Positions 42,619-64,000 of a stretch of DNA of 64,000 bases are shown piece by piece. This DNA comes from Trichodelitschia bisporula (Eukaryota). The stretch is from the NCBI GenBank assembly GCA_010356995.1, contig ML996706.1:315789-379788 (forward strand), given 5' to 3'. Made by a program: the position numbers and the translations under genes. Each line of letters begins with the position of its first letter. The first letter of the stretch is position 1. The notes beneath the pieces were generated by a model that worked only from the letters and a program-made list of their open reading frames with translations, did no database searches and was not told the DNA's origin.

Positions 42619-44527
42619 ATGCACCACACCGCCCCTCTCCTGGCGGCGCTCCTCGTGGCCAGCGTCTCTGCCCAACTCCCTGGCCTCCCCCGCCGCGGCT
42701 CGCCAACCGTATCCCTCGACTCGGGCAGCATCGCAGGAACAACGACGACGGTACCAAAAGGGAGCGCCACCGTCGACGTCGAGAAGTACCTCGGGGTGCC
42801 CTTCGCCGCGCCGCCGGAGCGCTTCCGCGCACCGAAGGAGCCCCGCAGATGGCGCGGGACGCGGGACGCGAAGGCGTACAAGCCGGCGTGCATTCAGCAG
42901 TTCGTTTGTAAGTTCCCCACAAGCGCGGTTTGGGAGTGGGGACTGATTGTGGACAGCTGGGCCCAACCGCGAGTTTACGATGAGCGTGTTTAATAACCCG
43001 GCGCCGCCGGAGAGCGAGGATTGCTTGTATCTCAATGTGTATGCGCCGGCGAATCGCATGAGGAATGGGCGCGGGCGCGCCGTGCTGTTCTGGATTTATG
43101 GTGGGGGGTTGCAGTTTGGCTCGGCGTCGATGCCGGGGTATGATGGGTCGTATTTGGCTGCGTAAGAGGGACTGAGTGGGAGATGGGCGCATGCTGAGAT
43201 GCCGCAGAAACCAGGATGTTGTCGTTGTGACGGCGAATTATCGGACAAATCGTGAGTCGCAGATCGACGGCTTGAGGGTCGCGGAAGGCTGACGCATACT
43301 GATAGTCTTCGGATTCCCGGCATCGCCGCAAATGAAGCCAACGGATCGCAACCTCGGGTTCCTGGACCAGCGGCTTGCACTCGACTGGGTGCAGCGGAAC
43401 ATCGATGGGTTTGGCGGAGATCCGCGCAAGGGTGAGCGGTTCTTGTTCTGTTCTGCTATAGCTTCTGTAAGCATACTTACTACTTCAGTTACCCTGTTCG
43501 GAGAATCCGCCGGAGCCGTCTCGATCGATGCGCTGTTGACATCGTACAACGCCACCAGCAGGCCTCCGTTCCACGCCGCCATTCTGCAAAGCGGACAAAT
43601 CAGCGTCAAGAGGCGAAATACGAACCCCGCACAAGCTTTCGAGAACTGGGCCCTCCTCTCCGCCGCCGTCGGCTGCATGGGAAACCGAACGTTGACGTGC
43701 ATGGAGCGCGTGTCGGCCGGCAAGCTCAAGATGGTCGGCGAGACGAATAACCTCAACTTCAACCCGGTGACGGACGGCGTGACGCTGGTCAATAATCCTG
43801 CAAGCCGAAGGATAGCGGGCCAGATCCCTAGGATCCCGGTGCTCATTGGGAGTAATGCCGGTGAGGGGAGGGTGTTCGTCAAGGGTGCGACGAATATCAC
43901 TCAGTACATTGCGCAGACGTTCCCTGGGCAGCCGGAGCGGAGTAAGGCTGTTGCGAAGGAGTATGCTGTTGGAAAGGATGGATTGAAGACGCCGTATGAT
44001 TCGATAGCCCAGATCATGACGGATGTGCAGTTTGGATGCGTGAGTACCGATGTCTCTAATGGGAATGCCATGCTGACGACTCTTGTGGTAGCCTGTTGGT
44101 CGGTTCGTCAGCGATTCCCTCGCGGGGCGGTATCCGGTCTGGCGTTACTACGTAGGGAACCCATCTCGCTTGGTCAACTAGCACTGCTAACCGGATGTTA
44201 CAGTACAATGCTACCTTCCCGAATCTCGAGAAGTTCCCCAACGCCGGTGCCTTCCATTCCGCAGAAATCGACCTCATCTTCGGCACGTACGGCAAGAGGC
44301 TCGCAGGGCCAGAGAGCGCGTTGCCGAGCACGCCGCAGGAGAATGCGCTGTCAGCGTACATCCAAAAGTCCTGGGCCAATTTTGCGAAGAATCCGCTTGA
44401 CGGGCCTGGGTGGTTGGCAGCGGGTACAGCGAGCGCCGATGTCCTCGAGTTCGGGTCAGCCGAGGCAAAGCTCATACGGGCGAGTGACATTGATTCCAGA
44501 TGCTGGTTGTACAATTCCTTGTACTAG
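42619..44527 (+). CDS. Secreted type-B carboxylesterase (COesterase family), second copy
   Basis: Signal peptide [75 protein letters not shown]; about six introns. Confidence 0.9.
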
Positions 44528-45152
44528 GATGGACAAGAAAGAGGGCGTCTTGAATCCTGGGAAATGGCTTGCTTTGGGGCTATGTAAATTGGGGGAGGTT
44601 GTGAGATTACTTGGACATGGCTTTTAACTGTCTGCTGGAGCACGCTGCGTTGATACCACTAATCCATGTTTTGGTCTGCCTTTTAGTTCTACTTGATACA
44701 TGACGTGCTGCATCACTGCAAGACGACTGACAAGCCTCACTTCGGGGGCTCGTGCGCCACTTGGATAGGATTTTCGACGCGGGCCGGGGTGGACGGGACG
44801 GACGGAAAAGCTTGAATTCGGCGGTCGATGCTTCACCTGACAAGCGACCGGGTTTTGGATCGAGGGTGGGGGGGGGTAGTGATGGTGGGGGAAGATGGGT
44901 GAGGAGAGATCGGCTGATCGGGCTGGGCGGCGGTGGTGGCGATCTCCTTAGCGGTGGTACTGCAGCGAGGCTGCAGGAGTATTCTACTGGGTGTGTACCG
45001 TGCAGAGTACACAGTACGAGTAGACGGGGATAGAAGGATGATGTTTGCTCATTTGAAAGGGTCAAGAAGCAGTGAAGTTGAAGTTTCGTGATAATTCCGG
45101 ATGATAAAACTTCCACACAGCCACGATGCACTCGCCACACCAAACGAGATGA

Positions 45153-47659: not shown

Positions 47660-50600
47660 CTAAACCGCCGTCCCAATATCAAGCTCCGCCACCGCCTCAG
47701 CCAAGTCTCCATCCCTCCAGCACTTGCACCCGAACCTCGCACGGAAGTCCGGCACACTAACCTCCCTCAGCTCCTCCGTCGCCTGCAAGCACGCCTTCAT
47801 CTTCGCAACCCGACTACTGTTCGCCACACCACTCGCCACAACCTCCGTATGCACCAGCACCGCCGCAACGACCTTGCTCGGCATACCAGGGGCTATGGGC
47901 TCGGGCTCCTCGGCAAACAAGCGGAATGCGGAGCAGGCGAATTTCTCGGTGAGTAAGTCGCGCAGCACGAGCGTGGGGTGGTTGTTCGCGAACGTGTCGT
48001 AGATGGTCATGTCCCCGAAATACGGCAGCATGTGCGTGGTGAAGAAGCGCTGAACTTGCGCGAAGTCGAAGCCGGAGTCGACGAAGATGGCGCCTACGTA
48101 GGCTTCCAGGACATCGGGGAGGCATTTGGGCGGCAAGGGGCCGTGGGTCCAATAGTCCGGCGCACCGTTGGAAACGCGTTCTGCCTCCTCGACGCTGAAA
48201 ACGTAGTCGTTAATTTGTGCTGGGAGGTTCGCGTGGCTGTGGCGCATGTGCTTGTGGAAGCCGATTTTGACGCATAGGGCGCCGAGAAACTTGTTGCTCA
48301 CCATGGCCATTTTGTGCTCCGTCAGCCATTGCGGGTCTTTGTCCGGGTACTTGTAGAATATGTAGCTGACACACACGGTGTCGAGCAGAGAGTCGCCTAG
48401 AAACTCCAGGCGCTGGTAGGAGGGCATCTGGTCCCACATGGCTGGGTAAGAGGGGTGATTGAAGCTCGTGCGCAGGAGGAGCGGGTTGTTGAAGTGGTAG
48501 TTGTCCTTGGTCTCGATGATGGCCGCGAGCTCGCGGATGGATGCCGAGATAGGCAGTGAGAGGTAGTTCGGCGGCTTGTAGGCGGCAAAGTAATCATCCC
48601 ATTTCTCCATTGTGTGGTCGAAATGGTCCACAAGCTCCTTCACTGCTTTGACTGCGTCGTTCCAGTTCTCCTTCTTCCATCCGAGCTGATCGTTATGCTG
48701 CACGAAAGCGGCACCAATGAGGGCTTCGCAGACGTCGGCAACAGACTTGTCAGACAAGCCGTGCGTGGGCGAAGCCGCAGGACCGCTCTTCCAGCCTTTG
48801 CCGAATGTCAACTTCAGGCCTTCGGGATACCAGGTGCGACTGTGGCTATTAGCGTTTGATATGTCATGGACAGGGATAAACTTACCGCGAGAAGGCCTGG
48901 GTACGAGCATACTCATATAACTTCAGATCCTTTGCACGACGGAACAAGTTCTTGTTGCACAACATCACCATGCGGGCCACATGACAAAGGTACTCGTCAT
49001 CACCAGGGTATCGAGCAATGAGGGAAATGGTGGTGGCCATCTTCAGGAAACAGTCCCCCATGAACTCGAGACGCTCGTAGTTGTTTCCCATTCCGGGACG
49101 GAAGTTGATGAGCTCTTCTTCATGATCACCGCTATTATCCGAGTCCTTGGTGCAAGCCTCAAGCGCAAGTCTAGCGGACACTTCAATCCCGATCAGCTGA
49201 GACGCCTCGAGAGCGATGAGATAGTCCTCGATACGGTGAATAATGGCTGGCAGCATGTACGCCGAAGTCGCCGCTTGAGGAGCGAGCGCAGATATCTGGA
49301 AAGGCTCGGGGCAGAGCCACGCCTTGGTCCGCAACTCAGTCTCCCTGGTCTCGGGCCGAGCCAGAAGGTTGCGACGATGGGCAATTTGCGTAGCTTGGAA
49401 GACAGGTTGGTTTGGAGTCCATTCCTTCCGCTGACGAGATGACTTCCACAGGCTCACGGAGTAATCCAGGATGTTATCCGTGTGTTTGAATGAGACCGCC
49501 TCCTCCGGGACAGGGTCAGTCTGCTTGAACTCTGGTGCCAGGCGATCACAGAAGAAGCGACGACCACCATCCCACTTATCAACAAGGAACTTGCCTTCGA
49601 AGTCTTCATTTGGCATGGACGGATCCCACCGGAAACCTTCAGGGTTGTCGAGAACGATTTTCATGGCTTTCCAGTCAATGAGACTCTCGGTCTCCGCATT
49701 GGCGGGCCCAAACTGATGGAGGGGAACGATCCAGTATGACATGTTAGCATCATCAGCCTCATACGTCTTATTGAAAAGATCTTTGAAGACCGTGAGGGTG
49801 TAGGACGTCATCAGCTGTATATTCGCAACGTCGACGTAAATCCGCTCCTTCACCTTTCGCGACTTGACCATTGTCATCTCTCCCCCGGTGAGGAAAAGAG
49901 GAAACTCTGGCAAATCTGGAAGCGGCTTTCGAGTGATGAAGCCAAGAGGCCGGTGCTCACGCTCGAGGCCATCAGTGAAGTCCAGCATAGTCAGACACAC
50001 TTCAGTCGGCACAGTTCCCCGCCCCTCCTGCCACATAGCTGGCTTCAGCCTCATGGGATACTGGCTCGTCTTCTTGGAGTTCAAAGCCAACTGGGCGTTT
50101 CGCATCGCTGGAAGGCTCTTGGTGTAAATGGGCATCATGTGCTCATCGAGGTACTCGCCCTCGACCAGCTTGAGGACCATTTCAAATGCAGCTGAGCGCT
50201 TGGCTAGGGACTTGCGAGGCTGAGGATCCCCAATAGCTGACCTAATTGGCGAATTCTCTGGGAGGATAACTTCGCACTGAAACTTTCCACTTTCAGCACG
50301 CATGACGAACTGCGGCGGCTGCGCAACCGCCTGGTCTTTGAGAGGAAGAGCTGAGCAGAAATGGTGGACGACCACAAGGCTGGAGTTATAGGTCACCGTT
50401 GCCCCACTCTTCGGATGGCGAAAGTACTTCCCCTTGCCTTTACAGAACTCATTGGCACTCTCCTCATCGTTTGCCTCTAGCAGCCGGTCTGCTGGCAACT
50501 TGAGGCACCACTCCTGCATGGTTTTGGCTGCCGCTCGAGCGTCCGTTATGATTTTGAGATGGACCATGTTTCCAGATTGGACCATGTCGATGAATTCCGA

Positions 50601-52539
50601 ACCCTTCGCGCGAGCCCGACCTTTGGATTGGATGTATTGGATCATGCTGCGATACAGATCAAAGCGGATGACCAGATTGCACTCGGGGATATCCAGTCCC
50701 TCCTCGGCGACTGACGTGGCAAAGATGCAGTTCAGAGTGCCTTTCTTGAATTGGATGAGAGTCATGATTTGCTCTCGGAAGGTTATCGAAAGCTCGCCGA
50801 GACGCTTTCCCGTTCCAGTGAGCACGCCGACGCGGACATTCGGGAGATCGAGCCGCTCGAAGATGGCATGGAGAAGACGGGCTGTATGCCGCCGCTCCAC
50901 AAAGACGATGCAGCGGGAGTTCGCAGAACTGGCAAAGTGCTCCTCAAGAAGTTTGTAGAGGATAGTGACTTTGCTCGACAGATCAGGCGTGCCCACCTCC
51001 GGACATTTCTTGAACTCCCACTGTGATATGAACCCGGCTGTTTCACGCAGCTTGGCAACATGCGCATCGAATTTCTCCGTTTGATGCACTTTGTCGTTGG
51101 CTGAGTACATGCGCTCCATTTCCATCTCGGCCTTACGGGCCTCGTCCTCATCCAGGGCAAAAGACCAGTAGAAGTCGGAGGCCCAGGTCCCTAGGCTCTC
51201 GCTCGTCTCAAGTGCAATACCCGCATACCGACGGATGATGTCGAGATGTGCAAAGCGTGACTCAATCTCTTTAAACAAAGTGCTCTTAGGAGATTTTGTC
51301 GAAGCTTCATAAGCCGCAACAAAATCCTGGCAGCGGTTACGCCAAGTATCGGCAATCGGAGTAGTCGCAATCCGCGAGTCTAGCAGCTGCTCGAGTTCCC
51401 TGTCAGATGTTAGCTAACAATCCCAATGACGGAACGAGGGATTAGGACCTAGCAGCCTCTACGACGTCTACTTTCGCATCAACCGGCGAAGCTGTCATTC
51501 CGAAAATCCTGGGCCGCGTGGATGGATCGGCCGGGAGGTAGAAGTCCCTAATGAGCCTTGACGAGTCAGTTTCATGTGTAGCAGGTATAGGCCAGAGCAG
51601 CAAATCTTACCGAGCATAGGGATGCTCCTTCTTTGCATGATGGGCTTCATCAAAAATCAGAAGGTTGATCTGGTCCATCTTGATATACGAGTGAAGCATG
51701 GCTTGGTGCAACACTTCAACAGTGCAGACGATGGCCATGTTCTCCCGGAGGTGCTTGTCCCAAACCGACTTGTTCCAGAGATCTGTTCCCATGGCCCCGC
51801 AGAAGCGGTCAATCTTATGATCTAAGTTGCAATTGAGCACCGTGAACTGCTGAAAAACCAGAGTGACGGAGTCGACCTATATCGTGTTAGCAATGGCAAG
51901 GCGTATGGGAAGTGCGATAGCAACCAGGAAGAATGCCATGCGCGGCGTCTTTTTGGCTGCACGTTCTTCGACTTCCTTATCGAGCGTATAGCGCAAAAGG
52001 AGTACAGCAATGAGAGTCTTCCCAGATCCGGTGTCAAGAACGGCAATAGTATTTTCCTTTTTGGCGCGCTCGAACAGGTCGATTTGGTAGTCTCGAGGAT
52101 CAGCGATAGTGACTGATTCCTGCTTGGCCATCAAGCCAGTAACGGAGAGGTCTTCGTCGGCAATTGTCTTCAACTCCGCCGTGAACTCTTCCTTGGAGAT
52201 AGTCGTCACTTTCTTCGCAAACCATTTCTTGAACACAATACGTTGGTTGTATTTGAGCTCAATCTGGGCGGCTACAGCATCGTCAGCAATCTCTTTCGGC
52301 TGAACTTCTTCCTCATCCCAGCCCCAGCTCTTGTCGTCGAACTCTTCGCTAGGAGTGTGTTTGTGCTCAAACTCGCGAAGGGGTGGTTGCGCAGGGGTTG
52401 GTCCATGAGTGATATCATCACCGATGACTTCATGTCTAAAATCTTCCAAATTGGGATGTTCGTTCGGGGAGTCATCCAAAATCGAGCTTAGCTCACGTTG
52501 AGCGTCGTCACTGTGGGAATCGTCCCCGGAATCTCCCAT
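47660..52539 (-). CDS. dcl1: Dicer-like protein 1
   Basis: [33 protein letters not shown] helicase motifs; dimerisation domain; two RNase III signatures ([20 protein letters not shown]); C-terminal dsRBD with CKC; about four introns. Confidence 0.93.
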
Positions 52540-53083
52540 GATTACAACGAACGAGAACGTGTGGCAACCACGAGAGGCAACGAAAGCCTAGAGAATGGCG
52601 ACGAAAAAAAGGCGAGAGAGTTGGAGGGAACTCGTAGGGTGCCGTGGTTTTGACGAAGTCGGTGATCAAGTGGGCATGTCGAGCAAACAAACACTAGGGT
52701 ACCGAAAGAGCACAAGGCCGCAATTGCCGACTTGTAAATGGAGAGTTCAGCTTGGCATTTGGTTCTACGCGCTATATGAGGCTGCATTACCGCGTAGCGA
52801 GGTAAGGGACGGATAGAAGTTGAAGTTGAAGTTGGCAAGTGTGATGGGATGAAGAGTCGTGGTCACTGGAGCTCGATAAGAGCGCGTTTGCTACGCCTTG
52901 TCCCGTGACGTCTTGCCCCACCATCAGGATCAGCCCCACTCACCCCCGCGCTACGCCACATACGCCACATACGCCACATTTTCTGCGGCAGGAGCCCCGC
53001 CACCCGCAGATCTACACCACCAGTCCAGCGACATCGCTCTCCCGTACGTGAACATACATACATCGTACACATCCTCAAGAGCT

Positions 53084-54195
53084 ATGGACTCTCAACCAAG
53101 AACACTTCGTAGTGCTTTTCTCGAAGCTGAATCCCGCCGGAGAGATCTTGAGTCGTCGTGGGAAAGTTCCAGCGCCACCTTCCAGGACAACCTTGCCGCT
53201 GCTATCGCCCTATATGAGGAAAGCTTGAAGGCAGCGCGCGAAGTTGCGCTCTTCAGTCCGAATGAGACGCTGGAAGATGTCAACTCTGGCGACCTCCAGT
53301 ACATGCTCATCAACTACCATCTGGCGGAGCTAAGCACAAAAATCACCGGTGGAGATCGCAAGGCGCATATCCTTCACGCGAGACGCTACTATGAAGCTTT
53401 CCTCAAGCTCTTAGACTCTTATGATATGCTTTCCAAGTCTGATTCGAAGCTATATGGGCAATACACGGAGGCGCCAGACATGTTTTCCACAGCATCCAGA
53501 ACAGACGCGGCAGCCCGCAGAGAGACAAAAATTGCTCGTTTCAAGGAAGAAAAAGCGCTGAAGAGCAAGCTCGAAGTACGCCACTTCAAGCCTGTAAGGT
53601 CATACTAACCGCACCGCAGCATCTCCGCCAGAACCCCCAAGCCCTCGAAAACGACGAAGACGCCCTCCGCGACCTGCACCTCACCAGCATCTCCCTCTCC
53701 ATCTACCAGACCTTCCAATCCCTCGAGTCCATCGCCCAAGAGCTGCACATACTAGCCATGGCGCCGCCCTCACAACCAGAAGGCGCCTCGCCTCGCGGAT
53801 CAGATACTCGGGAGCGCGAAAGTGCAGACAAGAGCGGGTATTCGGACCGGTTAGACTCGCGCGTCGGGGGTCTGGCGGGCTTGCAAGGCCCCATCCTGAG
53901 CAAAGATGGGAGACCGCTTCGGCCGTTTACCATACTAGATAATCGGACAAGGTTTCAGCAGGGGGTGTTCCGGCCGGATCACAGTCTTCCGACGATGACT
54001 ATTGATGAGTACCTTGAGGAGGAGAAGAAGCGGGGTGGGATAATAGAGGGTGGCGGCGAACAATCGGGTGTCAGGCCGGAGCCTGATGAGGATAACATGA
54101 CGAAGGCGGATGAAGAGACTTTGAAGGCGCGGGAGTGGGATGAGTTTACGGAGGCGAATCCCAAGGGCTCGGGGAATACGTTCAATAGGGGCTGA
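53084..54195 (+). CDS. TAP42: Tap42/alpha4 PP2A-associated protein
   Basis: LFSPNETLEDV, RRETKIARFK, GRPLRPFTIL, VFRPDHSLPTMTIDEYL, KAREWDEF..NPKGSGN; intron 53577-53619. Confidence 0.92.
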
Positions 54196-54833
54196 GTGCG
54201 AGCCTCTGGGTGCCGTCAGAGCTACCATCTCAATGCCACTCTGTCTTTGCCCCTTTCCCGGTGATGTTGTGCTTAACCCGTACGATGTCGGTCATGGTGA
54301 GGCTCCCGGGGCAAAAGTTCGTCGTCCTGAATAGTTGCCTATTGGGGCTAGCGAAGTGAAGATTAAGGGACTCAGGTTGGGCTACGCCGGATGTCAAGCT
54401 CTCACGATCCCGGAGGTAGAAGATTGCTTCTAGTGAAGGCTAAGAAGACAACACGACACACCAAAAGCACGACACTACACGTAGTTCATTACCATTACAC
54501 ATACACATAATAGTACACATATACACGCACGCACTTAGCGAGCGAACCCAACGTACGCCATACGCAATGCATAAACGCCACTCAGCAACTTAAATGCCGT
54601 TGTATCATGCACATGCGACCGCCATGCCCGAGTCTGTCTACAGCTCTCCCGTAGATGACATGCATTATATCAAATGGAAAAGCAAAGACTTTTGTTCCAC
54701 CCATACCACATTTCCCGTAACTCATGCCATATCCCCTCGTCCCCTTAAGCAAACTCCAATTCAGAATGCCCTTCGAAACAGCCTCGAATTGTGCTCTGCT
54801 GCCCTGATGCCTTCTTTACCTCTCCATCCTGCA

Positions 54834-57800
54834 TTACGGCGCCATGACAAGCGCCAGCAGGGCCATGCGAGTGTAGAGTCCATAGCGCATCTGCTTTGTG
54901 TTAGACCGGTCCAAAAAAAAGGGATAATGTTCCTTGGAACTCACCTGGCGGAAGTACGCCGCGCGCGGATCAAAATCCAGCTCCTCGGCGATCTCCTGGT
55001 TGCGCGGCAGAGGATGCATGACGATCATGTTTGTTTTAGCCGTCTTGAGCACAGCATTGTCGACGACAAACGCCGCCTTAACACGCTCATAGAGGTCTTG
55101 GTCCTCGAATCGCTCCTTCTGCACCCGCGTCACGTACAGCACGTCCGAATGAGCGACGATATCCTCCGTGAGCGTGGCCTCTTCCCTACCGAGCTGTCCG
55201 CGGCGCTTCAGAGCGTCGCGCACCTTGGCGGGCAACTCCAGCCCAGCCGGCGCCACGAGCTGAATGGTCACGTCGTAATGCTTGAGCAGCTCGCAGAGGG
55301 AGTGGACGGTGCGGCCGTAGCGCAGGTCGCCGACGAAGGTGATGGTCAGCCCGTTGACTGTGCCCAGTTCCTCGCGGATGGTGAAAAGATCGAGGAAGGC
55401 CTGGGTTGGGTGCTCGCGCGCGCCGTTGCCCGCGTTGATGATGGGGACATTGGAGAACTTGGCCGCGATGGCAGCGGAGGACTCGTCCGGGTGCCGCAAC
55501 ACGATAGCATCGCCGTAGCAGCCCAGGGTACGGATGGTATCGGCCAGTGATTCGCCCTTGGCAGTCGAGGAGTAGGCTTCGTTGATCTGCACGACCTCAC
55601 CGCCGAGACGCTTCATGGCGGCGTCGAAGGATGACGAGGTCCGCGTCGAAGGCTCGAAAAACATGGTGCACAGCACACGGCCCTTGAGGATGTCCAGGCA
55701 GCCTTGACGCTGCACTCCAAGGCGCATTTCTTGGGCGACCGTGAAGAGATCGTGAAGATCGGCGCGAGAGAACTGTGACACCGACAAGATATGCTTACCC
55801 CGGAACGGAGAGCGAGCGAGAAGCTCCGGGAGCTGAACAGCTTTGGGAGCCTGCAGCTGGCGGTAGAGCGGAGCGGTCGTTGACTCGGATTGGGGAGCGG
55901 GCACGAAAGTCTGATAGTCGACCTTTGTGACCTCCAGATCGTATTGACGCGCGAGAGCCTCGATCAAGATCTTTGCATTCTTCACGTTGGTGACCAAAGG
56001 CGTTTGGTAGTCCACGGCCATGCGGCGCGTCAGGTAGCCGCGGCTCATGTAGGTGGCAGGGCGGCGGAAGCGATTGCTCGAGGGCAGATTGATGTACAGA
56101 TCGATCATGTTGTTGGCGAGATGTTGTGTCAGCGAGTACTCGGGCTTCTGGGCGTCGGAGCCCTCAGGCAGGACTTCGAGAAACTTGACCGGGATGCCAT
56201 GCTCCTGAATGTAATCTGCCGTGCCCGCCGTAGCAAACAGGCTGTAGCCCATCTTGTGGAGCCGCTCGATAGATGGAAGCATCTCCAGCTTATCCTTGAA
56301 AGAACCAATGGACAGCAGGATGTTCTTCTTGGGCAGCTTGAATCCGGTCGAGAGCAAAGCCTTGATGTACGCTTCGTACTTCGTACGGCCAAAGCAAGCG
56401 ACCTCGCCCGTAGATGCCATTTCTACGCCAAGCACGGGATCGGCACCAGACAGACGAGAAAAGGAGAACTGCGGCACCTTGACACCAACATAATCGGGCG
56501 GAATGGTCACCGGGGGGTATTCAACGAGCGGTAAACCTGCCATGGCCTTGGTGGCCATTTCGATCAAGTCCACTCCCATCACCTTAGACACGAAGGGGAA
56601 GGAGCGGGATGCGCGGACGTTACACTCGATAACCTTGATCTCGTTGTCCTTGGCGATAAACTGGATGTTGAAGGGCCCAGTGACGTTGAGGGCATTACCG
56701 ATCTTGCGCGTCGCATCTTCGATCCGACGGATGGTCTCCGGGTCTAGATCCTGAGGAGGCAGAATCAAGGTGGCATCCCCAGAGTGAACGCCTGCGTTTT
56801 CAACGTGCTCGGAGATAAAATGGCCAATCATGGTGCCGTTGCGCGCAACAGCATCCATCTCGATCTCTTTAGCGTTCTCAATATACTTGGTGATGACAAC
56901 TGGATGCTCGCGGGAAACATCAGCAGCTTGCTTCAGGTACGCGGCCAAGTCATCCTTCGAATAAACGGTGTTCATGGCAGCGCCAGAGAGGACATAAGAC
57001 GGCCGGACCAGCACAGGATACGAAACCTTGTCGCAGAATTCGAGTGCTTCTTCGAGGCTGGTCAACTCCTTCCAAGCCGGCTGGTCGACCGAGATGCGAT
57101 CCAGCATACGCGAAAACTTGTATCGGTTCTCGGCGGTGTCGATCATCTCCGGGGATGTGCCCAGAATGCGGACATTGAGGCGATACAGCGGGAGCGCAAT
57201 GTTGTTGGGCGTTTGACCACCCATGGAGAGGATAACGCCACTTGAGTTCTCCATTTGATAGATGTCAAGGATGGACTCCAGGTTGATATTCTCAAAGTAC
57301 AGACGATCAGCTTCGTCGTAATCTGTGCTGACAGTCTCCGGGTTGTAATTGACCATGACGGTTTTGAATCCGTGTTCACGGAGAGTGCGGATGGCCCGCA
57401 CAGAGCACCAGTCAAACTCGACAGATGAGCCGATGCGATACACGCCAGATCCCAAGACCATGACACCGTGATCGTCGAAAGTTATATCGCTCTCCCGACC
57501 ATTGTAAGTGAGATACAAATAATTCGTCACGGCGGGGAATTCAGCAGCCACAGTATCGATACGCTTCACGATAGGTGTGATGAAGACGTCAAGCCGGGCG
57601 CGGCGCACCTCAAGTTCCGTCGAGCTCCAGAACTTAGCAAGCTGGCGGTCGGAGAAGCCGAGCTTCTTAGCCTCCACAAATTGCGGCCGGGGAACAGTGC
57701 GTGGGCTCCACTGGCTGATGACCTTAGAGAAGTCGCTCAGCTTCTTAAGGCGGCTCAAAAACCACTTGTCGATCTTGGTCATCTCCCAGATCTTGTTGAC

Positions 57801-60478
57801 CGAATAACCAGCGTGCATGGCATTTGCGATCGCAAACAAGCGCTGGTCAGAGGGAGTCTGAAGCTCCTGGTCAATGGACATAAGGGCACTCGTTTCGTTG
57901 AAGCCCAAGTTAGAAGGATCAACACCCCGGATGGCCTTCTGAATGGCCTCCTCAAAGGTGCGACCAATGCTCATGACTTCTCCAACACTCTTCATCGAGG
58001 AACCCAGGGCCGTGGAGACGCGAGTGAATTTTTTGAGGTCCCAGCGGGGAATCTTCACCACGACGTAGTCAAGAGAAGGTTCGAAGCACGCACAGGTCGA
58101 TTTTGTGACGGAGTTCGTGATCTCGTTCAAGGGAATTCCGAGACCAAGCTTAGCCGCAACGAAAGCAAGAGGGTAACCAGTAGCCTTAGACGCCAAAGCG
58201 GATGAGCGAGACAGACGAGCATTGACCTCGATGATACAATACTCCTTTGAAAACGGATTCAAGGCGTACTGGATGTTGCATTCGCCGACAACCCCAAGGT
58301 GCCGAATGACGTTAATAGCCGTAGTCCGCAGCATATTGTAGTCGTCATCGGAGAGGGTCTGTGACGGCGCAACAACGATGGAATCGCCCGTATGGATGCC
58401 CAGGGGATCAAAATTTTCCATGTTGCACACCGTGATGCAGTTGTCATGCGCATCACGGACAACCTCATATTCGATCTCCTTCCATCCCTTCATGCTGCGC
58501 TCAATGAGCACCTGGGGGCTGGCAGCAAAGGCCTTGTTGCAAAGCTCGATCAGCTCCTCCTTGTTATCGGCAAAACCGCTCCCGAGGCCACCAAGGGCAA
58601 AGGCAGCGCGGACAATTAGTGGATAGCCAATCTTCTCGGAAGCATCGAGCGCCTCCTCGAGCGTCGTCGCGGAAGCCGACTTAGCACACTTCTCGCCGAT
58701 CGACTCCATGCTGCGGGCGAACAGCTCACGATCTTCGGTGGTAATGATCGTATCAATAGGAGTGCCGAGTACCTTGACGCCGAGCGCCTCCAACTCATCC
58801 TTGAGCTGAATGCCAACCTGGAGCGCCGTTTGGCCACCAAATGTAACGTAGATGGCATCGGGCTTCTCGTAGGTGATGACCTTGCGGACAAACTCGGCAT
58901 TTACCGGAAGGAAGTATACCTTGTCGGCAAGCCCTTTGGATGTCTGAATTGTGGCGATGTTCGGGTTGATGAGAATGGTGTAGATACCCTCCTCCTTCAG
59001 GGCCTTGATAGCCTGGCTGCCCGAGTAATCGAATTCACCAGCCTGTCCAATGCTGAGACCACCGCTGCCCAGAACCAGTGCCTTCTTCACAGAGACGCGC
59101 GGATGCAGCTTCAGGTTCTCTTCAGCCTTGCCACCGGGGAAGATAACGGGCTCAGTAAGCGCCGCTGGTGACTCAATGCACTTCTGAATGGCGTCAATGA
59201 AGATGTCGAAGAGAAACTCGGTATCTTCCGGACCCGGTGCGTGTTCTGGGTGGAACTGGACGCTGAAGTACGGCCGGCCGATGTGATGTATGCCTTCATT
59301 GGTGCCGTCATTAGCGTTTACGAACAGCTCCTCCCAACCGGGAAGGAGAGACTCGGTCTCCACAGCGAAACCATGATTCTGCGACGTGATGTAACAGCGC
59401 CCTGAAATGCGGTTGGTGCAAGGAATGTTGTGGCCGCGGTTGCCAAACTTCATCTTCGTTGTCCGCGCACCAGAAGCGCGCGCCAACAGCTGATGACCCA
59501 AGCAGATACCAAAGATGGGAGTTTTGGCCTTGTCTAAAGCGTCCTTGATATGGCTCACAGTGGTTTCGAGCATCGCAGGATCGCCCGGCCCGTTTGAAAT
59601 GAACAGGCCATCATACTCCTCACCCAAGAGCTGGGTGAAGTCATAGTCCCACGGCACGACCAGCACCTCGACGCCGCGCTTTACTAGGCAGCGAAGCTGG
59701 TTGTACTTGAGGCCGACATCAACGCAAATCACGCGCACGGCTCGACCAGACGGGTGCTTGAGAGCGGTCGCCGGCTCTGGCGAGTAGGACTTGGGAACTT
59801 TTATGGATACTGCAAGCTGTCAGATATAGATCTCCGAGAGATTTGCGGGAAGGTTTAGCCACCTTCTGCCACAAGGTTCTTCAAATTGGGATTGACCCAG
59901 GGAAGAGTCTCAAAGTCGTCTTTCCAGCTGTGTACACCGTTCTGAGTGCCGTTTTGCACAGGGGTCGTAGAGCGAGTAATGACGGCAGAGAGATCGGTGG
60001 TGGAAGAGATATCAGGAGAACTAGGAAGAAGCAGACGCCCAAGCATGCTGCCCTCATCGCGGATCCGCTTCGTCAATGCCCTAGTATCCACGCCATATAT
60101 GGCCGGGACGCCCTGCTCTTTCAGCCACGTACCTAGCGACGACGAAGCCAGATAGTGCGAGTACTCTTCACCGGCGTATGTAGCCACCACCAGGCCAGCA
60201 ACATGGATCTCATTGGACTCGAAGTGTGCGGGGAGATCTTTCAACAGTTCGTCCCTGGTCTCTCTCGAAGGCACGCCATAATTGCCAATGAGCGGGAAAG
60301 TAATGACGAGGATTTGGCCGCGGTAGGAGGGATCAGTCAGAGACTCCGGATATCCCACCATTCCCGTCTGAAAGACGAGCTCACCGGAGACGCTCTTGTT
60401 GGCACCAAAGCTGGTACCGTAGCAATGGAAACCATCCTCAAGTTCGAGGGCCATCTTGAGTATGTCGGTAACTGCCAT
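54834..60478 (-). CDS. URA2: Pyrimidine multienzyme: glutamine amidotransferase + carbamoyl-phosphate synthetase + aspartate transcarbamylase, without a DHOase-like domain
   Basis: GATase [31 protein letters not shown], duplicated ATP-grasp halves, MGS domain; ATCase [17 protein letters not shown]. Introns 59810-59862 and 54891-54944 give about 1845 aa. Confidence 0.95.
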
Positions 60479-62158
60479 GATGGCGACGACGTGATCTTAT
60501 GGCGCCTGGAGGCTTGCACAACTGGTAGGTGCGCAGTTGCAGATGTCGTTGGGACTGTGATGCGGAAGGGCCTCGGTGCGTCTGCGGGTTCCGGCAGCAA
60601 ACTGGCTAGTTATGTGCAGAATTGACGGAATGGCACATGAACCGGTACCCCGCTTCGAGGTTTGCGGTCTAGGACCGTGGTAGTAGGAGGTAGCGTAAGG
60701 GTGAAACGAATGATAAAGACGAGTACGCAGATGCAGGGAGCAGACGATGTTGAGGAGAGAAAAGGGTTGGAGTGATAGGAAGAGGAAATTTGTGGTTTGC
60801 AACTTTTTGGCAAAGGCGGCGGACTGGCGGGGGAATATTTTTCTCTCTACGAAACCTCGACCCAAGACCTGGACTAAGAATTAAAATGGGGACCTGTTGA
60901 GCTACGGTAAAAGCCCTTCAAGGGTCTAGCACCCAGGTTATGCACCAGCCTGATTTGGAATGGTGTGATCTCGTTGGGCAAGCGAGCTGTACGTACCGGT
61001 TCGGGTTATGAATTGTCGGTAATCGTGGGTCCCATGGCTTGCGACTTGAAGAGATGCGCAGCGGGGCTGGCGAAGAGCTCGCGGGGCCAACGGTCTTTCG
61101 GTTTATTGGTTCGCTTCAAGCTATTCAAGCCTTTTGTCTTGGTATCATATCCCAGTCCACTCTTGAAGCATTCAACCACCAGCGTGACCGACATTGTCAG
61201 CCTAATGGCCTGCCGATGCTTCGTCGCCTTGGAAGCAGTGGTATACAGCTATTATCTTGCTGTGCCTCCGTGTCAGATGATGTTACAGATGATTGTTCCT
61301 ACCGTACCGTATAGTGCAGAGTTTTGCGACCCGCTCAGCTGTTATGCATGGGTGACATAATTGTTTCTAGACCCGGGGCCACCCAAAAAAGGTTGTGACC
61401 GCACCCGTCCGCAAAGTTGCTCAGTAGGGCGGCCCATGGTTATTTCGATGGCCCTTGGACCCTCGATCCCGTCTAATGATCCCGTTTATACTCCGTAAAC
61501 CCGCAGCTAGTCGCCTCTCTAGCGGAGAGTATGGCGAATTTTATGCGTGGTTGGTAGATGCAGGTGCGGCTAGGTGCAGGGCACGCCATATATGGACATT
61601 CGTCCACTGCCTTCGCCGGCCTTTGCCTCATGCTGCAGGTGGAGCGTTGTGGTAGATGCTATTTGCGAGAGAGCTGCAAGGCGGTGTGCGGGTTAATGCA
61701 ACAGCGGGAAAAATGCTAGCGAATATATGGAGCGAACAATGATGGTAGCTACTGCCGTCTACTCCGTAGATGCTTCGACAGACAATTGAACCATGATGCT
61801 CCTTCTCTGTTTCATGAATCTATCTACCCCTCCACTGCCTTCCCCCCAAAGAGGGGATAGCGCTCCCGCAAGGCACTATCACGGGGCCTCTGCGTCCGTG
61901 CGCCCCTTGGCCTTGGCCCGCCGCATGGTCCACATCGATCTTGACAACCCCGAAGATAAGGATCAATCCATTCCTCAAGCATCCCTCTTCCTCCCCCTCA
62001 TTCTCGACTTCTTAAGTCATGGCATGATCGTTCTGGTCGCCGCGAATACTCTTTTCCCCGAGCATATTCATCGTTGGATTTAGTTCTTTGAAATGCAGGC
62101 ATTTCTGGCTGTCAACATGCCCTTGGGTATGCGCCAGTGAGTACCGGTGCTATCTGCA

Positions 62159-64000
62159 ATGTTCGATTCTCTCTTGCGCCTCTCAAGGGCTCGCCGACGT
62201 GCAGAAAAAGCTCGTCAGTCCTCGACAGATCGTGACAGGCGGCGTGCGCGTGTTGAATCCACGTCTTCTAGCAACAATGGCTTTTACCGGTCTGCGTCCG
62301 AGGGGCCAGCGCGACGAGTCGGAGATGTCGAGGCATCTCTGCTGCTGCCCATATTCTCAGCGCCTCATCTTGGTATGCCTTTATCTAGAGAATCAGAGTG
62401 CTTACGGTTACTGATAAGTTCCCTAGATCGAATTCCTGTTTACAATCTCCAACACCGTATCCGTATGTTGGTGATGCAAAGGGCGGAGACCACATTGTCT
62501 TGGGACCAGCTCCGCTCGCCGCAAGTTTCACAGTTCTTGGTGAAGCCCATACACAGACAGATTCAGGACTCGAATCCACCGCGCGGCACGCTCTACGCAC
62601 TGTTGGCCAACTGCCTGCAATTCCAGAAGGACGGCGAAATGAACCCGGGTAACATCGGTGTTTGTCGCACAAGGGCAATGATATGCGAGCTTTTGGCGAT
62701 GCGAATGCTCAAGGAGCTAGACACTCAAGAGGTTCGTTTCGCTTCATTTCGCTTCCCGCATCCGCTAACCGCATTCAGAGGATCGATGCCCTGTTTTACG
62801 ACTTCGACCCTCTACAGGGCATGACCGGCTACAAGTCAGGCACGACCACGCCGGTTTTTGGGAAGCAGAGGGCGCGTATGCGAATATCAGCCGTCGAAAT
62901 TGCAATCCGAGCACAGGCCAAACGCTTTCTCGCACATCCCCTTGTCGTCGCACAACTCGAGGCTATTTGGGCGGGAACAATTGTGTTCAATTCCGTGGCA
63001 GATACACTCCACCGCCGGCCAGTTGCCAAAAGGAGACACCGGAACATGCCATACGGTACTTTTGATGATTCCCACCCATCGTCACGTACCAGAGGACCCC
63101 CTGCTGAGATCTCATCTAGACGGTCGGTAACTCTTTACGATCCATCTGAAGCTTCATTCTTCAAGCTGTCGCGCCTACGTGTACCTCGGTATCGCCAGAT
63201 CTTTTCAACCTTGTCTTTCGGTGTGATGCTCGGCCTATTCCTAGCGGTTCTTGCGGAGAGATCTCTCGACATCACGGGACTCGAATTGATCTTCTGGTTC
63301 TGGAGCGCCGGCTACATGATGGACGAGATTGTCGGCTTTTCCGAGCAGGGCTTCAGTCTCTACATCATGAGTGTCTGGAACGCCTTTGACATCGGCATTC
63401 TCCTTCTATTTGTGGCCTATTATGTCCTCCGACTCTACAGCATCTTGATTCCGGACGGGAGGAGGGTCCGCTTGACGGCAATGGCTTATGATGTGCTGGC
63501 CTCAACTGCTGTGCTGCTTGTGCCGCGCCTATTCTCTGCGCTGGATCACTACCAGTACTTCAGTCAGCTTCTGATAGCATTCCGGATGATGGCCGTCGAT
63601 CTGGCTGCCATCCTATTGTTGATCGGGATAAGTTGTAGTGGCTTCTTCGTCGCCTTCACAATGTCCTTTTCCTTTTCCGACAGCATCACCGCCTCGAATG
63701 TGGCATATGCCCTCTTCCAGATCCTGATGGGATTCACGCCGGCTGCGTGGGAAATGTGGCCGAACTACAACTTCCTGGGCAAAGCTATCCTGACTCTGTT
63801 CCTCATCATCTGCCATTTCCTCATCGTCACCATCCTCATCACGGTGCTGACCAACTCTTTTACGGCTGTGGCGGTCAATGCGAACGATGAGCATCAGTTC
63901 CTATTTGCTGTCAATACCATTTCGATGGTGAAGAGCGAGGCCCTTTTTTCCTATATACCGCCGACCAATATCCTGGGTTGGATCCTATCGCCACTCCGGT
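62159..64000 (+). CDS. Yvc1/TRPY1-like Ca2+-permeable nonselective cation channel (runs off the window end)
   Basis: LSWDQLRSPQVSQFLVKPI, LYALLANCLQF, CELLA, EIAIRAQAKRFLAHPLVV, RLRVPRY then several transmembrane segments; start codon uncertain. Confidence 0.82.

Follow-up and report, generated by a model that had tools for sequence, protein, structure and literature searches.

Can a CAD-like enzyme do without the dihydroorotase-like domain at its centre? The question is raised by one gene, URA2/pyrABCN, in a 64,000-nucleotide stretch of DNA from Trichodelitschia bisporula, a fungus that taxonomy places in the order Phaeotrichales of the class Dothideomycetes (GenBank assembly GCA_010356995.1, contig ML996706.1, positions 315,789 to 379,788 of the forward strand; the whole stretch is called the window below, and positions are counted from its first letter). 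Enzymes of this kind fuse a glutaminase (GLN), a carbamoyl phosphate synthetase (CPS) and an aspartate carbamoyltransferase (ATC, or ATCase): the glutaminase supplies ammonia to CPS, an allosteric domain controls the carbamoyl phosphate output of CPS, and the ATCase makes carbamoyl aspartate. In the CAD field's model, the dihydroorotase (DHO) domain or its pseudo-DHO counterpart dimerises and so serves as the hub through which ATC trimers become a functional hexamer, and dimers of DHO or of inactive DHO-like domains are held to link two such trimers in both CAD and the fungal CAD-like proteins (PMC8442968, PMC9863657). What is described here is a whole fungal class without that hub. With a probability of about 90%, the window gene is a single functional Dothideomycete URA2/pyrABCN orthologue encoding a GLN-CPS-ATC fusion, from which the DHO-like domain was removed by one ancestral, class-wide deletion. 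The evidence that carries this reading is the architecture of the gene, its expression and splicing, its distribution across the class, its single origin and the conservation of its motifs.

Spliced contigs and open frames place the orthologue on the minus strand at 60478..54834, interrupted by two short introns. In the raw sequence, the main frame is open from 59819 to 54834 on the minus strand (1661 codons), and the N-terminus is encoded in a second minus-strand frame, 60496..59855. Joined as 60478..59863 + 59809..54945 + 54890..54834, the coding sequence has 5538 nucleotides and yields 1845 residues, just the length that a sequence-only reading of this DNA had estimated; the product is identical to a deposited T. 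bisporula protein (P0002). Contigs from four public runs were placed on positions 54700-60600, two of them RNA-like (X1 and X2) and two DNA (X3 and X4). The parts of the gene are listed here, with the numbering of the exon-2 frame given as P0001.

59863..60478, minus strand: exon 1, with the start ATG at 60478..60476 and the N-terminal glutaminase lobe (Pfam CPSase_sm_chain, E 5.7e-47); its end is set by the spliced contigs.
59810..59862, minus strand: intron 1, 53 nucleotides, GTGGCT...TTGCAG on the gene strand, skipped in X1/X2 and retained in the DNA contigs X3/X4.
54945..59809, minus strand: exon 2, running from the class-I GATase through the two ATP-grasp halves of the CPS and the MGS-like domain to the linker and the greater part of the ATCase (Pfam GATase, CPSase_L_D1/D2/D3, MGS, OTCace_N and OTCace; collinear RNA-like contigs).
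59193..59723, minus strand: class-I glutamine amidotransferase, with the Cys in GICLGHQ and the His-Glu in FHPE (PF00117, E 8.5e-52, P0001 residues 33-209).
56310..59087, minus strand, borders approximate: carbamoyl-phosphate synthetase part, two preATP-grasp/ATP-grasp halves and an oligomerisation domain (PF25596, PF02786, PF02787).
55908..56285, minus strand: MGS-like allosteric domain and its C-terminal tail, ending ...VDYQT (PF02142, E 6.1e-19, P0001 residues 1179-1277).
55803..55907, minus strand: CPS-ATC linker FVPAPQ...ARSPF, 35 residues, protein residues 1507-1541 (spliced translation, alignment gap).
54837..55802, minus strand: aspartate carbamoyltransferase, split by intron 2, with the motifs STRT, HPTQ, RVQKER and HPLPR (OTCace_N, PF02729, E 1.3e-47; OTCace, PF00185, E 2e-26).
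54891..54944, minus strand: intron 2, 54 nucleotides, GTGAGT...AAGCAG, in frame and stop-free, skipped in X1/X2.
54834..54890, minus strand: exon 3, 18 residues and the stop codon at 54836..54834 (open frame, spliced contigs).

The X1 and X2 contigs show only two joints, of 53 and 54 nucleotides, both with GT..AG ends on the gene strand. Between positions 54945 and 59809 they are collinear with the window and letter-identical to it, crossing the CPS-ATC junction unbroken. The DNA contigs X3 and X4 carry the whole gene unspliced, with zero joints or differences. The gene is transcribed and correctly spliced. The sequence-only reading had held that no intron or frameshift hides extra sequence at the junction and had named an assembly collapse there as a danger to its claim; the two introns lie elsewhere, and contigs of both kinds pass the junction cleanly.

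A Pfam scan of the window protein, with a cut-off of E <= 0.01, gave the order expected of a CAD-like fusion up to the allosteric domain and again in the ATCase: the CPSase small-chain lobe, the class-I GATase, two preATP-grasp/ATP-grasp halves with an oligomerisation domain, the MGS-like domain and two ATCase domains. The glutaminase is complete by family, with both PF00988 and PF00117 matched, and the halves of the CPS are duplicated, PF25596 and PF02786 each matching in two stretches with PF02787 and PF02142 also present. The carbamoyl-phosphate domain of the ATCase starts at P0001 residue 1342. From 'ELLARSPF' onwards, the C-terminal 330 residues match the structures of the Chaetomium thermophilum CAD-like ATC domain (8bpl/5nnn, E 6e-123), and in the alignment to solved structures the allosteric part of the CPS stops about 39 residues before the ATC match begins.

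In the place of the missing domain there is a linker of 35 residues, which occupies the position held in other fungi by about 400 residues, that is, by the DHO-like domain and most of the DHO-ATC linker. The sequence-only reading had described one open reading frame passing from the end of the MGS-like domain through 35 residues to the ATCase start at RGKHILSV, and it reads exactly so, with the linker at 55803-55907 inside the stretch 55790-55925 to which attention had been drawn. No amidohydrolase or DHOase family was matched in the protein at the cut-off used, including the PF01979 and PF12890 of animal-type CAD, and blastp found no similarity in it to the DHO-like domain of Aspergillus nidulans. 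Nor did tblastn with residues 1534-1900 of the A. nidulans protein (P0110) find a DHO-like match anywhere in the 64-kb window, the best hit having E = 0.22. The DHOase-like domain is thus confirmed to be wholly absent from this enzyme, as had been claimed from the sequence alone. The comparison with Aspergillus PyrABCN that the earlier reading had proposed bears out the gap of about 400 residues.

The short architecture might have been a peculiarity of this genome, as the earlier reading implied, and this part of it did not hold. The last 562 residues of the exon-2 frame served as the query of a database search, and the best 120 relatives were compared. By blastp with the A. nidulans domain, a DHO-like domain was present in 20 of these 120, at 61-100% identity, and was not found in the other 100, even at E <= 10; the survey of relatives that had been called for thus turned up the same deletion, with the same borders, in 100 of the best 120. 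The distance between two anchors, RRxAVDY in the allosteric domain and EPSTRT in the ATCase, could be measured in the 115 of the 120 in which both were found. Two separate ranges emerged, 107-131 residues (95 sequences) and 495-532 residues (20 sequences), with none between, and a cruder motif count agrees.

By our own count, 65 of the 100 short forms bear species names. Each of the 26 species looked up in the taxonomy belongs to the Dothideomycetes, and these 26 span 14 named orders and both subclasses, as well as lineages of uncertain placement (incertae sedis), Coniosporium and Cryomyces among them. The short form is present in Alternaria, Parastagonospora, Venturia and Plenodomus. The seven named long forms among the best 120 come from Sarea, Caeruleum, Xylona, Paecilomyces, two species of Aspergillus and Chaenotheca, and none of the seven is a Dothideomycete (three were looked up in the taxonomy). 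Farther afield, searches made for another purpose listed long forms of about 2100-2400 residues for chytrids, Coemansia (Zoopagomycota), Mortierellaceae and Mucorales (Mucoromycota), for rusts and agarics (Basidiomycota), for yeasts, Pezizomycetes and a Sordariomycete, and, outside the fungi, for red algae, insects, fishes and dictyostelids. Judged by these sequences, the long form is the rule and the Dothideomycetes are its named exception; the short architecture occurs in every Dothideomycete examined and, on this sampling, is class-wide.

A FastTree tree of 54 proteins took in 27 short forms of Dothideomycetes, 21 long forms across the eukaryotes and 6 environmental short forms and used 1826 of 2743 alignment columns; the DHO columns were removed by a 70% fill rule. 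The 27 Dothideomycete proteins form one clade with a Shimodaira-Hasegawa-like local support of 100. The clade is sister to long forms of Eurotiomycetes, Xylonomycetes, Sareomycetes, Coniocybomycetes and Caeruleum and is nested within the Pezizomycotina, and the remaining tree matches fungal phylogeny. This indicates that the window protein is the orthologue of fungal URA2 and not a side copy. Because the short forms make a single clade and share identical borders, the tree and the alignment indicate a single ancestral in-frame deletion of about 400 residues, which would fall on the stem of the class or a little before it.

For the borders themselves, 8 short and 5 long forms were aligned with MAFFT, and there is one clean gap with the same borders throughout. 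The long forms run from ...DYQT-SHR..LPGL.NV.AF.PG... directly into the DHO-like domain, and the short forms resume about 10 residues ahead of L..LLxxSPFK. The deletion would have begun right after the CPS allosteric domain (...DYQT) and stopped some 10 residues short of the conserved L..LLxxSPF segment at the entry to the ATCase. It would be one event, no later than the base of the Dothideomycetes, whose result the whole class has retained. Across the 95 short forms with both anchors, the ends of the linker are conserved (DYQxF on the CPS side, L..LLARSPF on the ATC side), and some 22 columns in its middle are conserved to only 0-40%. The anchor distance is 118-124 in 89 of the 95, so that the length varies by only a few residues. 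Residues 1363-1845 were modelled with AlphaFold2 as a monomer from a 31-sequence alignment; the model, silent on assembly, reached a mean pLDDT (predicted local distance difference test score) of 77.7 and a pTM (predicted template modelling score) of 0.64. Residues 1495-1528 have a pLDDT below 50 and no secondary structure in the model. The first 22 residues of the linker are likewise below 50, and are followed by a short helix, LPELLA, docked on a confidently modelled ATC domain. The linker is predicted to be a disordered tether, constrained in length and free in sequence.

Several other explanations of the short junction were considered. It is hardly credible that the junction is an assembly collapse or an artefact of the gene model, since the raw sequence has an unbroken frame, the spliced transcript contigs cross it without joints or differences, and the same borders recur in 100 independent database sequences. 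An equally faint chance attaches to a decaying pseudogene in a fungus that obtains its pyrimidines by salvage: the frame stays open over its 1845 codons, splicing of the transcripts is correct, and the STRT, R-H, HPTQ, R.Q.ER and HPLPR residues of the ATCase are invariant in 31 Dothideomycete sequences. The catalytic roles of these motifs, and those of GICLGHQ and FHPE in the GATase, we take to be as in the rest of the family. Over the C-terminal 483 residues, 30 other members of the class are 72-79% identical to the window protein, and the mean column identity among all 31 is 78%. Given its intact motifs and the spliced transcripts of its gene, the enzyme may be considered functional, and a pseudogene excluded, for practical purposes; the claim of intact GATase, CPS and ATCase motifs made at the outset is borne out by Pfam, the invariant ATCase residues and the spliced transcripts.

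Another reading is a specialised short paralogue, standing beside a normal long URA2 in the same genomes. The search of T. bisporula reached no further than the window, which leaves room for such a copy, yet the short forms sit at the Dothideomycete position in a tree that otherwise matches fungal phylogeny, the best 120 relatives hold 65 species-named short forms against no Dothideomycete among the seven named long forms, and the short form is well covered by spliced transcript contigs; a paralogue is therefore considered very improbable. Somewhat less improbable, though still unlikely, is that the pseudo-DHOase has been split off, so that the product of a separate gene now acts in trans as a DHO-like scaffold of the ATCase trimer, docked on the conserved ends of the linker. 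There is a bacterial precedent in which the ATCase is reported to require a separate inactive DHO chain (PMC7053772). DYQxF and L..LLARSPF could serve as docking sites, and the search of T. bisporula for DHO-like sequence reached only the 64-kb window. That window gave nothing DHO-like (best tblastn E 0.22), the neighbours of the gene being Dicer-like, TAP42 and YVC1 genes, and, in a weak test, the protein language-model look-alikes listed for a fungal DHO-like domain were all bacterial DHOase clusters, with no stand-alone fungal cluster among the matches listed.

A single orthologue with one ancestral deletion is thus the preferred reading, and some points weigh against it. The search of T. 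bisporula for DHO-like sequence covers the 64-kb window only. Taxonomy was checked for 26 of the 65 species-named short forms, the others being taken as members of the class. X1 and X2 are one sample from one study, and their RNA label is a guess, though the spliced contigs argue for RNA; X3 and X4 are possibly the assembly's own source and then would not be independent of it. The tree was made by FastTree with local support only, and the sister class Arthoniomycetes lies outside its sample. The activity, oligomeric state, channelling and uridine triphosphate (UTP) inhibition of the Dothideomycete enzymes are all inferred from sequence. Finally, DHO dimerisation is needed for the function of human CAD, according to a preprint (10.1101/2024.07.30.605799), and therefore a DHO-less enzyme needs another solution.

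How might the single-orthologue enzyme work without its hub? It would make carbamoyl phosphate and carbamoyl aspartate as Ura2 does, and, as other fungi do, the species would presumably leave the dihydroorotase reaction to a separate enzyme of the Ura4 type. ATCase is active only as a trimer, with its sites between the subunits, which is established for the family and stated in the same preprint (10.1101/2024.07.30.605799). Because of this placement of the active sites, trimerisation of the ATC domains is at least required, and three chains would join through them, each GLN-CPS lobe being held near the ATC trimer by a flexible tether of fixed length with about 25 disordered residues. Any higher assembly without DHO-DHO dimers would come about through CPS-CPS contacts, through a separate partner, or not at all. 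Contacts between CPS domains have been raised as a possibility for Neurospora, and for CPS dimers, in two papers (PMC8442968, PMC9863657). Three forms of the enzyme are then conceivable, namely a trimer, a hexamer joined through its CPS parts, or an assembly dependent on a partner. The sequence-only reading had suggested assembly as a trimer only, with altered carbamoyl-phosphate channelling or UTP feedback, which may be so. We put at even odds the stronger proposal that in Dothideomycete URA2 we have a natural 'minimal CAD' without DHO, one that works with no pseudo-DHOase, either as an ATCase-nucleated trimer or as a CPS-CPS hexamer.

Comparison with known systems sets the window protein closest to the fungal CAD-like proteins, among them Saccharomyces cerevisiae Ura2, A. 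nidulans pyrABCN (P0110, 2275 residues) and the C. thermophilum protein. These are orthologous to it by tree position and have the same order of GATase, CPS, MGS-like domain and ATCase. P0110 is 65% identical to it over the C-terminal 560 residues. Unlike these proteins, the window protein misses about 400 residues between ...DYQT and L..LLxxSPF. The animal enzyme CAD (about 2225 residues, GLN-CPS-DHO-ATC) has the same GLN-CPS...ATC fusion, and the window ATC matches human CAD ATC (5g1n) with E 1.2e-96, whereas animal CAD has an active DHOase domain (PF01979/PF12890) and the window protein is without any DHO domain. The ATCase of Pseudomonas aeruginosa is a trimer that is reported to have an unfused, inactive pDHO partner (PMC7053772); no such separate chain was found in the 64-kb window.

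At the C-terminal end, the fungal CAD-like proteins share an intron or insert at the same place as the window gene. In the raw open reading frame, intron 2 is read through and appears as an 18-residue insert relative to the solved ATC structures. A. nidulans P0110 carries an extra 19 residues between AAYFRQ and MRYGLY, at this same place, and the stretch is missing from the solved ATC structures; it looks like a conserved intron left unspliced in the gene model.

Other fusions without a DHO domain came up when the 522-residue junction region was used in an exhaustive profile search: proteins only 37-46% identical to the window protein over that region, in which a single alignment continues from the allosteric domain into the ATCase without a break. 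A first group, of nine clusters, has the GAT-CPS-ATC architecture, 1797-1842 residues and no DHOase family (P0188, P0418, P0420, P0435, P0444, P0448, P0468, P0476 and P0480). The linker of P0188 is rich in Asn, Lys and Ile, and the amino-acid composition is odd in the three that were tested (P0188, P0418 and P0448). The other group, of five clusters and about 1400 residues, is a CPS-ATC fusion without a GATase or a DHOase family (P0152, P0274, P0275, P0276 and P0143, the last of these an 853-residue fragment). This P0152 group starts at the N-terminus of the CPS large subunit, reaches the ATCase about 50 residues after the MGS-like domain and is about 50% identical to eukaryotic CAD. Besides both groups there are two singleton short fusions. 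All of these environmental proteins come from metagenome contigs and have linkers of 50-70 residues, and in the 54-protein tree they lie outside the fungi on long, compositionally odd branches. Their DHO-less junctions appear to be independent events elsewhere.

Current reviews of CAD have the fungi keeping the domain and dimerisation required for function. A full-text literature search, with most subscription journals outside its coverage, found no paper on a fungal lineage without the DHO-like domain, and none in the same literature that joins Dothideomycetes with carbamoyl phosphate synthetase and aspartate carbamoyltransferase. A class-wide DHO-less CAD-like enzyme is apparently undescribed so far. 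The sequence-only reading had named as a refutation of its claim a short architecture both widespread and already described: widespread it is, across a class, and no description of it was found in the searchable full-text literature. The short-form proteins themselves are already in public databases under generic names. In the DHO-like domain of A. nidulans P0110 (residues ~1534-1900), Pfam-A finds no amidohydrolase or DHOase family at E <= 0.001, and the precomputed Pfam lists of fungal long forms are without PF01979, which animal CAD has. Pfam is blind to the fungal DHO-like domain, and long and short fungal forms therefore show identical architectures, which may explain why the difference went unremarked.

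Dothideomycetes are the largest class of Ascomycota, and Alternaria, Parastagonospora, Venturia and Plenodomus are among the major crop pathogens in it. That the short form is spread across such a class lowers its uniqueness and raises the biological weight of the missing domain. The hub-less enzyme is kept under strong purifying selection in the class, which makes it a natural experiment on the need for the hexamer, on the passage of carbamoyl phosphate from CPS to ATC over a 35-residue tether and on the survival of UTP feedback. If the minimal-CAD proposal is true, the DHO scaffold, described as conserved from yeast to humans, would be dispensable for CPS-ATC coupling and UTP control. The particle would also be smaller, at about 200 kDa per chain, and possibly easier for the long-sought GLN-CPS-ATC structure.

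The genes around URA2/pyrABCN in the window, as far as domain matches identify them, are these.

43293-44627, plus strand: open reading frame with a carboxylesterase-family match (E 2.2e-30).
47660-52587, minus strand: Dicer-like gene in several frames, with DEAD/ResIII helicase, Helicase_C, Dicer dimerisation and platform domains, two RNase III domains and a dsRNA-binding domain.
52880-54195, plus strand: TAP42-family gene over two overlapping frames, presumably split by an intron.
62141-63999, plus strand: vacuolar calcium channel of the YVC1/TRPY1 type, with the linker helical domain, YVC1_C and ion transport domains, running off the end of the window.

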